In this document: positions 3,770-39,584 of the stretch, in pieces
Numbering within the stretch: position 1 is the stretch's first letter
How the letters are laid out: every line of letters starts with the position of its first letter
Virus record (IMG/VR): IMGVR_UViG_2645727821_000011
DNA: 50,870 nucleotides
Direction: 5' to 3' (one strand)
Source: a virus
Taxonomy: Duplodnaviria > Heunggongvirae > Uroviricota > Caudoviricetes
Made by a program: the position numbers and the translations under genes
The notes under the pieces: generated by a model
The model's database searches: none
The model's input: only the letters and a program-made list of their open reading frames with translations
What the model was told of the DNA's origin: nothing

Positions 3770-5032
3770 TCAGCGAACGTAAATAGTGCCGCCGTTCTCT
3801 TTTTCCCATGCATCGCTACGTGCATAGCAAACATCGAGAAGTCTTCTTGCCGCAGTTTCCTCTAAACCCAATTCGACAACCAACTGCTCATGACGGCGGG
3901 TAACCACATCAAACAGGGTATGCAGCCCTTTAGTTGCCAGATCATCAATGAATTCCGGTTCGAACGGAAGCTCTGCATCTGCCAACATAACCTCTTGCGC
4001 CCACTCAACTCGACGGACCAATTCCGGGCGGCGGCTTTCCATCTCTTTACAGATCAATTCATGGAAGAACTCTACCCAACCTTCCGGCTGGAACTCGCGG
4101 AAAATTGCCAACGGCTGGAAGTTTGGCATCAACCATTCGTTGATTCGGATATCAATGGCATAGCCCATGTCGCAGCAGAACTGATAAGCAAAGTCCAGCT
4201 TAGACACGATATAAGGACGCTCGTTATTGAACTCTTTAGGCGATGAGATCCCATAAGCCAGGAGGCGCGGGAAGAAGGATATTTGCCCTAACGTCGGATG
4301 AAGTTTGCTTGCAGGGAAACGGCGCTCAGTAATGCCATACATTTCCTTCTTGAGCGTCGCAAATTTGGCATTCTCATTAACCAGCGCGGTAACCTCTGCT
4401 TTTTTATTAGCAAATGCCACGCGCGCTTCGCTTGCATCTTTAATAGTTTTTTTGAGCTGTTGGTTAAGGTCGGCGACCTGCTTACGCAGTTCCTGTCGCT
4501 CGCTTTTAGCTTTGTTATAGCGTTTCTCAAGGTTAAAAGGATCAAGTTTCATGATCTCTTTATATTGAGATTTTAGCGTTGAAATCTGTGAGTTCCGCAG
4601 TTCAACCATCGCGGTCATTTCATTGAGTTTTGTTTCCAGCTCAATGCTTATACGTTCGGCATTATCAGCACGCTGGTTGGCGTCATGCGTCGCATCGTCG
4701 ATCGCGTCCTGTTGCTGGCGTTTCAAATGTTCAATTTGCAGCTGAAGCTCTTCAATTTCTTTATCCTTCAGACCGAGATCCAACTGCATATTTTCAGCTG
4801 CATCTACCAGGGAGTTATGGCTATCAGCTTCTGCGTTATAAACATCAATAAGCTGTGCGTGAAGCATCTCCGCTGACTGAACCGCATTATCAAAAAAACG
4901 CGCTGTGAGGTCATCACAACTAACGCGGCGTTGCGCGGCCCGGATGTTCTGGATAATGGCCGGGATACCGGCATTCAGGACGTCAGGGATAGATACATTT
5001 TCGATTGATTGGTTTTGTGCTGAAGTGATCAT
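3770..5032 (-). CDS. hypothetical protein (420 aa) with long N-terminal coiled coil and globular C-terminal domain
   Basis: ORF; K/E/Q-rich heptad-like region. Confidence 0.6.
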   Translation of the reverse strand: MITSAQNQSIENVSIPDVLNAGIPAIIQNIRAAQRRVSCDDLTARFFDNAVQSAEMLHAQLIDVYNAEADSHNSLVDAAENMQLDLGLKDKEIEELQLQIEHLKRQQQDAIDDATHDANQRADNAERISIELETKLNEMTAMVELRNSQISTLKSQYKEIMKLDPFNLEKRYNKAKSERQELRKQVADLNQQLKKTIKDASEARVAFANKKAEVTALVNENAKFATLKKEMYGITERRFPASKLHPTLGQISFFPRLLAYGISSPKEFNNERPYIVSKLDFAYQFCCDMGYAIDIRINEWLMPNFQPLAIFREFQPEGWVEFFHELICKEMESRRPELVRRVEWAQEVMLADAELPFEPEFIDDLATKGLHTLFDVVTRRHEQLVVELGLEETAARRLLDVCYARSDAWEKENGGTIYVR

Positions 5033-36814: not shown

Positions 36815-37852
36815 TTAACCTATTGCTACTGGTTTTAACAAACCAGCATCAAGTAGCTTGCGAGTTAACCACTGCTGGCCTTTACCCGTTAATTGGGGCG
36901 TCAGCCGTATCTGGTAGCCATTTTCATCATCCAGCACCACTTCTTTCACCGTGAAATACCCGGCGTTGATGTACTGTTGGCGCGGTACGTTTTTGCGCGC
37001 ACCAAAAGCCATGAGAATGCCGTTCTGGCGCAACCATGAGAAAAGGGCGTTTTGCTTAAGTCCAACGACCTTTGCAAAGTTCCCGATCAGGATTCCATTA
37101 GCCACTGATACCCGGTCGGCAAAATCGACTTTAGGGGCTGCGGCCACCAGCTGTTGTTCCAGCTGCATTTTCTGTTCTGCCAACTCGGCAGCCAGGCGTA
37201 GAGCTTCTGGTAATGTTTGGGGGATCGATGGGGCAGGGGAGTTTGCCTGCTGCAATTCTTCCAGTTTGTCGATCAGCGAACGGCGGACCGCTTTTGACTC
37301 GCGCGCGGCGACTCGCAGGGCTTGTTTGAAAGTCATGGTTATGACAAGCATTGATGTTTTGTTCATTTTTTCCACTACACTTTTTGTGTAGTGCTCACCA
37401 TCAAGCTCATCGAGTATTTTTTCGATGAATTTGTTGTTCCGAACCTCTGGTTCCCCACATAACTTACGCGCTTCATTGACCATCTTTAACAGTGTCAGGC
37501 TGTCGATTGTGTCTCCGGTGTTGGAGATAACATTCACTGCTGGTGATGGCGTAGCTGAAGCAACAGGTGCTGGTTTTTCAACATTCAAATTATTACCGGT
37601 CATTCTGCGCGCCTCCTTTCTCATTTCTGCTGCCACTGTTGCGTAACGTAGACGTCCTTGTTCAATCAAATAATCCCTGATCTCGGCTATCAGTAGCCTG
37701 TTGATCACAGCCTTATCTGTTCGGGTATAAAAACGTCTGGTTATCATGAAATAGTTGGCAATTGCGCCGGGGATCTCCCGTGTCGGCATACAGGTTGTAT
37801 GCAAAGCGATCGCTTCGGCTATTTCATTACGGGTGACGAGAGGTGTTTTCAT
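36815..37852 (-). CDS. ant: antirepressor Ant (Ant1, with internal in-frame start for Ant2)
   Basis: recognised as P1 Ant; ATGA coupling with icd. Confidence 0.8.
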   Translation of the reverse strand: MKTPLVTRNEIAEAIALHTTCMPTREIPGAIANYFMITRRFYTRTDKAVINRLLIAEIRDYLIEQGRLRYATVAAEMRKEARRMTGNNLNVEKPAPVASATPSPAVNVISNTGDTIDSLTLLKMVNEARKLCGEPEVRNNKFIEKILDELDGEHYTKSVVEKMNKTSMLVITMTFKQALRVAARESKAVRRSLIDKLEELQQANSPAPSIPQTLPEALRLAAELAEQKMQLEQQLVAAAPKVDFADRVSVANGILIGNFAKVVGLKQNALFSWLRQNGILMAFGARKNVPRQQYINAGYFTVKEVVLDDENGYQIRLTPQLTGKGQQWLTRKLLDAGLLKPVAIG

Positions 37853-38384: not shown

Positions 38385-38401
38385 AAATCTATTAGAGCAT
38401 T
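38385..38401 (-). promoter_or_regulatory. C1 operator-like site AATGCTCTAATAGATTT upstream of c4-icd-ant
   Basis: 15/17 consensus match. Confidence 0.5.
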
Positions 38402-38497
38402 ATCTGATTGGTAAATACACAACTGGATCTAATAACCTCTTTTTTTTAAAGGCGAAAATATGTACCCTAAATGAGTTATAAGGCAGGTGAGGTTATA

Positions 38498-38989
38498 ATG
38501 AGAAAACTATTACTACCGTTATTATTTATGGCTGGGACTGTTAATGCAGCATCAAGCGTAAAGGAGATTTGTACCGATTATACGAAATACCTTGGGCACG
38601 TTTACGGCTTTGCTGTCAGTCAAGACGAATCCATGCGCAAGAAGTTACTGTCAGATATGAAACGCCTTAAACTTTCTGAAGCGATGGTGCAGCAAGAACT
38701 GTATAAAGTCGTAACCAACGAAAATGCTAAATATCAATATTCTCGCCTATTAAATCCCGACGCAAACGAGATCAATCGAAGCACTTTCGATTATATGGTA
38801 AAGGCATGCGAAACCGCTCCTGATTTTGCTATCCCTAGCTGGGGTGTGCTGGTGGCGAGCAATGCCGTTAATAAAGAAGATGTTGGAAGAAATGGCATTG
38901 ACTCAATAAGAAATGCCCCAGGAATGCGCCATCAAAACGTACAGGGTACGCTTGAAGAACGAGCCAGGGGGCCGGGTGTAGCCCCATAA
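38498..38989 (+). CDS. secreted protein (163 aa with signal peptide) whose C-terminal ~28 aa copy a motif found twice in Sit; sim-like superinfection-exclusion candidate
   Basis: ATG after GGTGAGG; MRKLLLPLLFMAGTVNA signal; C-terminus GIDSIRNAPGMRHQNVQGTLEERARG. Confidence 0.6.
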   Translation: MRKLLLPLLFMAGTVNAASSVKEICTDYTKYLGHVYGFAVSQDESMRKKLLSDMKRLKLSEAMVQQELYKVVTNENAKYQYSRLLNPDANEINRSTFDYMVKACETAPDFAIPSWGVLVASNAVNKEDVGRNGIDSIRNAPGMRHQNVQGTLEERARGPGVAP

Positions 38990-39077
38990 TTTAATAAATA
39001 ATATTAAATTCTCTGGGCATAGTGGATCTAACAATATGGACTATGCCTATAATATCTAAAAACAAAAGGATAAAAAT

Positions 39078-39584
39078 ATGAAATTGTATAAGTCATTGTA
39101 TAGCTTTTTATTAATGTCCTCTTTTCTGCCATTATCAGCAATGGCAGGTTCTACCGTTTGGACGGTAGGAGGTGAGCAAGGGTGGAGAGAAATCGCTGCA
39201 ACCAATGACGATGGTTACACAATTAACTTTTCTTGTGATGCTGGAGCAAGGGAAGGTTCAGAAGATCATATCGCTGGAAGAAATTTGTATGTAAGCGGAG
39301 GAAAAGAGAATGCCGATTTTTCTACACGCGACACAATATCACGTAAAGCAGATGTAATTACTTTAATTGTTGGCCCGGATAGTTTTAATATTGGCACGCA
39401 AAACACTGCTCCTAATCGTAGGGAATGGTATTCATTTTGGAAGGCAGTGTCATCTACAAATGAAAAAAACATAGATGTATATATCGGTTCGAGTCGAATC
39501 ACATCATTCACTCTGGATGGTATTTCCAGTATTTATACAGAAGCTAAAAATGACGGGTGTTTAAAACAAAATGACGGTGAATAA
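39078..39584 (+). CDS. secreted protein (168 aa, signal peptide)
   Basis: MKLYKSLYSFLLMSSFLPLSAMA signal; AT-rich codon usage. Confidence 0.6.
   Translation: MKLYKSLYSFLLMSSFLPLSAMAGSTVWTVGGEQGWREIAATNDDGYTINFSCDAGAREGSEDHIAGRNLYVSGGKENADFSTRDTISRKADVITLIVGPDSFNIGTQNTAPNRREWYSFWKAVSSTNEKNIDVYIGSSRITSFTLDGISSIYTEAKNDGCLKQNDGE

Follow-up and report, generated by a model that had tools for sequence, protein, structure and literature searches.

What does the first gene of the sim locus, simA, do in the P1-like phage-plasmids that carry it at full length, and why does its product end in a peptide that also occurs in the tape-measure protein Sit? The locus is a hypervariable, low-G+C hot spot of these elements and is known for its mosaicism (PMC9603915, PMC6906374), and its function has so far been understood for P1 SimC alone. 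The question was addressed in a stretch of 50,870 nucleotides of a Caudoviricetes virus (IMG/VR record IMGVR_UViG_2645727821_000011), referred to here as the window. Judged by its synteny with coliphage P1, relative to whose reference it is inverted, the window is a P1-like phage-plasmid. After ant1, icd and c4 it carries a plus-strand cassette, followed by pmgC, tub, pmgB, sit, pmgA, bplA, gene 16 and R. The cassette comprises three genes (38471-40644) in place of P1 simA-simB-simC, and homologues of SimB and SimC are absent from the window. The SimA gene opens the locus, divergent from c4-icd-ant and upstream of pmgC, a placement also seen in P1, Ro157c2YLVW, JK004 and plasmids, and all products of the locus have signal peptides. 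The genes concerned are as follows.

36815-37852, minus strand: ant1, followed by the icd and c4 region.
38498-38989, plus strand: full-length SimA-family gene (mechanical ORF 38471-38989).
39078-39584, plus strand: ORF2, a 168-aa secreted protein with a signal peptide and two cysteines (phrog_3429, function unknown).
39571-40644, plus strand: ORF3, 357 aa, with a C-terminal bacterial SH3 domain (SH3_3, E=3e-6; phrog_7086) and a hydrophobic segment at about aa 215-237.

Some further features were seen at the edges of the cassette and elsewhere. Where c4 and simA are transcribed from divergent promoters, the sequence AAATCTATTAGAGCATT lies between these at 38385-38401, a position homologous to that of the C1 operator Oc4 (Op51) in P1, and C1 may influence simA transcription through this candidate. 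At the other end, a hairpin with a 6-bp stem (AAGCCTcttaAGGCTT) at 40627-40642 overlaps the stop codon of ORF3 ahead of pmgC; it was scored as terminator-like on both strands and could be where the sim transcription unit stops, ahead of the late sit operon. The window also has three minus-strand tRNA genes, for Met (CAT, 16474-16549), Thr (TGT, 18177-18252) and Asn (GTT, 18255-18330), and P1 presumably carries a comparable cluster.

The probable start of simA is the ATG at 38498 (MRKLLL...), with GGTGAGG upstream, and most homologues likewise begin with MRKLLL or MKKL. The precursor is 163 aa long from this start and 172 aa long from 38471, and it ends in ...NGIDSIRNAPGMRHQNVQGTLEERARGPGVAP before the stop codon. 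It matched phrog_3933 with an E-value of 8.6e-114, and relatives are named "simA domain protein" at NCBI. We found 23 homologues with 59-99% identity, and 51 columns were invariant in an alignment of 19 sequences. Both the signal peptide and the conserved domain (CTDYTKYLGHVYG ... IPSW) are covered by the homology, and on this comparison the window protein is an intact SimA-family member, encoded by a moron-like gene of the hypervariable sim locus. Its parts are listed below.

38498-38548, plus strand: Sec-type signal peptide MRKLLLPLLFMAGTVNA, read from the sequence and of a type conserved in the family, with cleavage predicted before ASS.
38549-38875, plus strand: conserved N-domain, all helical, aa 27-135 (172-aa numbering), in which C34 and C113 are invariant.
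38894-38971, plus strand: Sit-like linear motif GIDSIRNAPGMRHQNVQGTLEERARG, aa 142-167 (G142-G167), defined by BLASTP, shuffles and profiles.
38977-38978, no strand: mosaic joint, placed by DNA alignment; the megablast match stops at 38977.

Cleavage would fall between MRKLLLPLLFMAGTVNA and ASS, and the signal peptide has no lipobox cysteine. Since a classical Sec signal peptide is combined with two invariant cysteines, SimA is very probably periplasmic; the same two features bear out, as a prediction, the view of an earlier note on this DNA that the protein is secreted. In an AlphaFold2 model built on the 19-sequence alignment, aa 31-130 formed an all-helical domain with pLDDT values of about 88-97, whereas the values fell below 50 from aa 142 to the end, which is the motif region. 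The tail is thus predicted to be disordered, as would suit a linear motif on display.

No significant neighbour of the fold turned up in the PDB or BFVD, and the search of PDB sequences returned nothing relevant. There is no NCBIfam model for SimA, no known peptidoglycan- or membrane-binding domain was detected in it with Pfam and NCBIfam, and PADLOC gave no match and no defence-model membership for SimA, ORF2 or ORF3. Neither fold nor sequence similarity was found to the periplasmic lysozyme and transglycosylase inhibitors Spackle, Ivy and MliC/PliC. A Pfam assignment to the PTP-like phytases (PF14566) was rejected, as the score was exactly at the threshold and the C-x5-R catalytic loop is absent.

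The C-terminus of SimA was said in the earlier note to match two segments of Sit, and the alignments agree. BLASTP aligned SimA aa 131-171 with Sit 921-957 (21 of 41 residues identical, E=1e-7) and, as a second HSP, SimA aa 143-157 with Sit 997-1011 (E=0.006). The Smith-Waterman score of SimA against Sit was 90, compared with 38.1 ± 5.4 for shuffled SimA, and none of 2000 shuffles reached 90, so that the alignment stands as significant against the shuffled controls that the note had called for. With Sit copy 1 masked, the second segment scored 53 against 31.8 ± 4.2 (2 of 2000 shuffles), and the two Sit segments also resemble each other, forming an internal repeat (52 against 20.8 ± 4.0; 0 of 2000 shuffles). 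Independent support came from the Sit-family profile phrog_2533, positions 929-963 of which matched SimA aa 138-171 with an E-value of 4.4e-5. Among the six-frame ORFs of the window, Sit was the sole cross-match of SimA (E=3e-6); ORF2, ORF3, P1 SimB and SimC and the alternative SimA tails matched no other ORF of the window. A short motif of about 26 aa could be suspected of chance or low-complexity resemblance, but the shuffles, the BLASTP E-value, the independent profile match and the exclusiveness of the motif among 1.84e9 proteins (see below) refute this, and we consider its probability practically nil. SimA is not a Sit-family protein or a Sit fragment either, as only aa 131-171 align and the N-domain has no match in Sit.

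The Sit protein and its two copies of the motif are placed in the window as follows.

42965-46339, plus strand: sit, tape-measure protein with a lytic transglycosylase domain, 1124 aa (Pfam SLT; P7 Sit).
45188-45505, plus strand: SLT (lytic transglycosylase) domain, Sit aa 742-847 (Pfam PF01464, E=2.4e-14).
45713-45823, plus strand: motif copy 1, DKIGNAVGVNDLVNKFMNGRGMRREVVQGTLEERARG, Sit aa 917-953, present in all P1-like Sit examined.
45917-45994, plus strand: motif copy 2, DQLGAQMGIDGLFDKLRNSPGMRKNN, Sit aa 985-1010, supported by the internal repeat score of 52.

The positions given earlier for these segments were right to within a few bases: copy 1 reads NGRGMRRE... from 45764, and copy 2 has the G of GID at 45938 and reads LRNSPGMR from 45962. 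Sit is the tape measure of P1, and its SLT domain is thought to provide the cell-wall-degrading activity of the tail, as the P1 counterpart of the T4 gp5 lysozyme (PMC9024508). Sit is not resolved in the cryo-EM structure of P1 (PMC12810830), and our AlphaFold2 model of Sit 700-1124, based on a three-sequence alignment, had a mean pLDDT of 38, too low to show any docking of the motif on the SLT domain.

The motif region of the window Sit is identical to that of P7 Sit. Copy 1, which on the sequences compared is the ancestral copy, follows the pattern DK[IL]G..[VA]G[VI].DLV.KFMN[GS]RGMR.[EQ].VQGTL..RA.G. It lies directly after the SLT domain, within a conserved element that is followed by a variable linker rich in Pro, Thr and Ala. 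Against divergent Sit proteins (JK004, an S. arizonae plasmid and P0033), the block 931-945 was 0.84 identical, compared with 0.70 for the SLT domain and 0.53 for the whole protein. From its sequence, this layout resembles a short linear motif exposed close to that end of the protein which enters the periplasm. The divergent set was drawn from phage and plasmid records and P0033; a word-indexed protein search with a 143-aa Sit segment returned only frameshifted Sit fragments, and the relatives found with full-length Sit were at least 93% identical among the matches listed.

Copy 2 does not have the VQGTLEERARG half. It is located inside an insertion (window 45845-46030, Sit aa ~961-1022) that is confined to Sit of the E. 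coli P1/P7 lineage and is absent from Sit of Cronobacter phage JK004, S. arizonae and P0033. The duplication inside Sit that the earlier note described therefore holds for the E. coli P1/P7 lineage, while Salmonella and Cronobacter Sit have a single copy. The insertion occurs as two alleles, FDKLRNSPGMRKNNAPEP and YDKLINARGMRSNNSPQP (RNSPGMRK and INARGMRS), which sort independently of the sim cassette.

Length variation was also observed near the N-terminus of Sit. In two E. coli proteins, P0035 (1223 aa) and P0054 (1257 aa), a segment of ~99 aa is tandemly duplicated (..RVATVDPVSRSVSALNRTIENS..AMKRLNLGDVSR.. occurs twice), and P0054 has additional tandem EANAKEI[AT]PELKAPVNS units. If Sit is the ruler of the tail, these variants predict different tail lengths.

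The consensus of the motif is N-x-[PR]-G-M-R-x-[QEN]-x-[VT]-[QE]-G-[TAS]-L-x-x-R-A-x-G. In every full-length SimA, K-E-D-x-G, 8-13 residues and then N-x-[PR]-G-[MV]-R-x-Q come after the helical domain. The N..G[MV]R core was kept in all full-length SimA examined, from elements of E. coli, Salmonella, Klebsiella and Cronobacter, and the sequence after it varies freely. Several subfamilies (E. coli types, the Salmonella arizonae plasmid and P0032) continue with [VT]-[QE]-G-[TAS]-L-x-x-R-A-x-G; others have a Cys-containing tail instead, and the Klebsiella and Cronobacter subfamilies have the N..GMR.Q half only.

A profile of 44 positions, built from eight instances, was searched against 1.84 billion representative proteins and gave nine matches, eight of which were Sit, Sit fragments or SimA; the ninth was a 22-aa fragment of uninspected sequence. 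In a tblastn search of the tail against 50,697 phage records, sit and simA genes alone were found at meaningful E-values. Within these searches, the motif is private to SimA and Sit, both families of P1-like elements, and the idea that it is part of a wider domain family was ruled out by the profile search, Pfam, NCBIfam and the phage tblastn.

The annotated simA of P1 encodes only 52 aa. Its first ~45 residues are identical to the window SimA and then diverge at a mosaic joint; the DNA upstream of the gene is 95% identical to P1, and the similarity stops near window 38637 (window 38471-38640 against 4172-4330 of the P1 locus, L001). By this alignment, the P1 gene is a truncated remnant of the 163/172-aa gene of the window. 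It is the same gene without nearly all of the helical domain and without the Sit-like tail, so that the annotation "putative superimmunity accessory function" names a gene remnant, and the motif could not have shown up in studies of P1 itself.

The second joint, at 38977/38978, lies just past the motif. Similarity to the 215-aa SimA of vB_EcoM-Ro157c2YLVW stops two codons beyond it (..RARGPG, with the joint after the last G), where the window reads VAP and a stop codon and the other allele runs on for 47 unrelated residues. In this pair of alleles the motif has been retained and the sequence past it exchanged. Five assembly-derived SimA sequences (P0003, P0004, P0007, P0008 and P0016) are versions of the 215-aa allele frameshifted just before or after the motif, which could be due to sequencing errors or to real decay.

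The DNA of the two segments had also been described as similar. This is true in a weak sense, with 38 of 53 positions identical between 38912-38964 and 45764-45816, a value reached by 1 of 1000 codon shuffles, but the similarity is no more than the shared peptide predicts. Over VQGTLEERARG, with 11 identical residues, 26 of 33 nucleotides match, whereas 24.7 ± 1.8 are expected for independently drawn codons. In the 24-codon block, different codons are used at 10 of the 17 identical residues. Synonymous sites of VQGTLEERARG are saturated between SimA and Sit (pS 0.76, pN 0) while the peptide is identical, so the DNA similarity is explained by the conserved peptide. The codon differences and the pS value rule out that DNA was recently copied between sit and simA, or exchanged by gene conversion, and the independent codon choice points to an old duplication with the peptide under selection in both genes.

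The comparison of SimA alleles gave a similar picture. Between the window and Ro157c2YLVW, the 33 tail codons differ by eight synonymous changes and one replacement (pS 0.33, pN 0.013), compared with a pS of 0.024 in the rest of the gene, that is, the signal peptide and N-domain. The sole replacement, A to S, gives a residue that is present in Sit copy 2. These codon comparisons demonstrate purifying selection on the peptide in SimA as well as in Sit.

The same results bear on whether the tail is an evolutionary relic, that is, a fragment of sit or an ancestral shared module that was captured in the sim locus and has no function in SimA. The locus is a known mosaic hot spot (PMC9603915, PMC6906374), with joints inside and just after the simA gene, and SimA is truncated on many elements, all of which would suit such an origin. 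However, the peptide is intact while its synonymous sites are saturated, the excess of synonymous over replacement changes in the tail (eight to one) and the pN/pS values disfavour a relic, and the motif is found in all full-length SimA subfamilies from four host genera although the flanking tail is freely replaced. We therefore consider a functionless relic very unlikely.

To place SimA among its neighbours, 79 loci from phages, plasmids and IMG/VR were surveyed; the SimA scans covered 69 loci in IMG/VR and four in genome contigs. A full-length SimA was followed by an ORF2 homologue (153-179 aa, secreted, phrog_3429) in 45 of 46 complete loci, sometimes with ORF3 as well, suggesting that SimA and ORF2 probably act together. 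As third gene, ORF3 is optional and was found in a subset of the loci; its first 14 nt lie within the end of ORF2. Truncated SimA was accompanied by SimB and/or SimC in all 18 cases and was never followed by ORF2. Among plasmids with a SimA match (n=267), the query was covered to at least 80% in 126; with the gene truncated in about half of the P1-like plasmids, its function is evidently dispensable.

One locus of the survey, L048 (IMGVR_UViG_2695420521_000002), was the only one in which a full-length SimA (221 aa, NARGMRTQNTQGALERRALG type) is followed by a SimC homologue and not by ORF2. By its gene order, it is a natural hybrid of both cassette types.

The constancy of ORF2 and the conservation of the N-domain suggest that the tail may not be the working part of SimA. 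The motif could be a shared address label, a peptide for periplasmic localisation or anchoring that binds, for example, peptidoglycan or an envelope protein at the entry site and positions the SLT domain of Sit. The SimA tail would then only deliver the N-domain, alone or with ORF2, as the real effector, which might inhibit Sit or the channel or might serve something other than exclusion. In line with this, the N-domain is better conserved than the tail (51 invariant columns in 19 sequences) and has a confident independent fold, and it must therefore do something in its own right; the presence of ORF2 in 45 of 46 loci suggests a multi-part system over a bare peptide decoy; and the motif directly follows the SLT domain in Sit. 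On the other hand, the searches revealed no domain known to bind peptidoglycan or membranes, no relative of the fold hints at an inhibitor, and by sequence alone this possibility is inseparable from a decoy. We regard it as somewhat unlikely.

SimA could also bind Sit directly. In that case the N-domain or ORF2 would recognise the Sit motif and the SimA tail would be a pseudo-ligand, intramolecular or oligomerising, that is displaced by the incoming Sit; or the tail would be a poison subunit that co-assembles with Sit. The presence of a motif in both a target and its candidate antagonist is typical of autoinhibited binders, and SimA is constantly accompanied by ORF2. Within the tail, tape-measure proteins form multimers, and a homotypic contact through the motif is conceivable on that account. 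AlphaFold2 did not dock the tail on the N-domain, however, and the tail had pLDDT values below 50. Nor was covariation of the alleles found: in the same element, the SimA motif allele does not covary with the Sit copy 2 allele, and RNAPGMR-type SimA occurs with both RNSPGMR and INARGMR Sit. Direct binding is thus distinctly unlikely in our estimate.

For a probably periplasmic protein of the sim locus that bears a selected Sit peptide on a predicted disordered tail, interference with injection is the simplest explanation. We tentatively propose, at somewhat less than even confidence, that SimA interferes with the injection of incoming P1-like phages by mimicry of, or competition with, Sit. The earlier note had likewise read SimA as a periplasmic decoy that stops incoming phage at injection, and the present results support this reading in part, with the peptide as a candidate interaction motif. 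After export to the periplasm, SimA would be a compact helical domain bearing a flexible C-terminal tail, which would display the motif that is also found just after the SLT domain of Sit. If Sit behaves like other tape measures with a cell-wall-degrading domain, its part behind the SLT domain would be among the first to be expelled into the periplasm. The SimA tail would occupy the partner of the Sit motif, be it a host envelope factor, Sit itself or another ejected protein, or would deliver SimA there, and the DNA conduit would then fail at the crossing of the cell wall or inner membrane. Both the role of the motif as a binding site and the exclusion phenotype are what we infer from these features. 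The gene lies in the interval from the c4/icd/ant immunity operon to pmgC that simABC fills in P1, a position that speaks for interference by mimicry. Against it stand the 52-aa stump in P1, whose experimentally established exclusion protein is SimC, the lack of covariation between SimA and Sit alleles, the half motif of some subfamilies and the frequent truncation of the gene.

A more specific form of this proposal, which we consider doubtful, is that the mimicry is escape-proof. The prophage would secrete a copy of the most constrained peptide of Sit, the handle by which ejected Sit grips an envelope factor or its partner chains on its way through the cell wall and inner membrane. If so, incoming P1-like phages would be out-competed and an escape mutation would cost infectivity, Sit of the E. 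coli type would have countered with its lineage-specific second motif copy, raising avidity, and the motif peptide would be a direct bait for the DNA-entry factor of P1. In any case, a selected 26-residue peptide that is private to Sit and SimA offers a concrete experimental handle. If mimicry is true, it would also help explain why P1-like phage-plasmids, which are widespread in Enterobacteriaceae and in many cases carry resistance genes, are incompatible with one another.

Several phage systems are known to act at the same stage as that proposed for SimA. According to Kliem & Dreiseikelmann (1989), as cited in PMC8546580, Sim of P1 stops P1 at the stage of DNA entry, once adsorption has taken place. 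SimC of P1 is encoded at the same locus as the window SimA, from the c4-icd-ant operon to pmgC, and both are exported with a signal peptide, but SimC has no sequence similarity to SimA, lacks a Sit-like motif and belongs to PHROG 14355 rather than 3933; in the window, the cassette of full-length SimA, ORF2 and ORF3 is found instead. Spackle (Sp) of T4 is said to be a small periplasmic phage protein that inhibits the tail lysozyme gp5 of an incoming tail. No sequence or fold similarity to SimA was detected. Spackle engages its target with a folded surface, and copying of a peptide from the target is not known for it. Ltp of TP-J34 and gp15 of HK97 reportedly act when the genome enters, by way of tape-measure proteins, ejection proteins or the host partners of these. 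The same holds for SNIPE (PMC13190303), and SieA of P22 is an exclusion protein that acts on ejection proteins (PMC10883804). SieA, Ltp, gp15 and SNIPE are either membrane proteins or lipoproteins, and none is homologous to its target, whereas the candidate SimA is a soluble protein that has a homologous peptide in common with Sit, its presumed target. To our knowledge, none of P1 Sim, P22 SieA, T4 Spackle, HK97 gp15 and TP-J34 Ltp shares a homologous peptide with its target. Full-text literature searches, with the P1 genome paper (PMC523184) outside their scope, gave no mention of the motif, of full-length SimA or of a comparable peptide-sharing excluder, and exclusion by homologous peptide competition in place of a dedicated binder, which SimA would represent if mimicry is true, was not found described. 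Prophage-encoded periplasmic proteins that act on injection are known; what would be new in SimA is a homologous copy of a tape-measure peptide as the working part.
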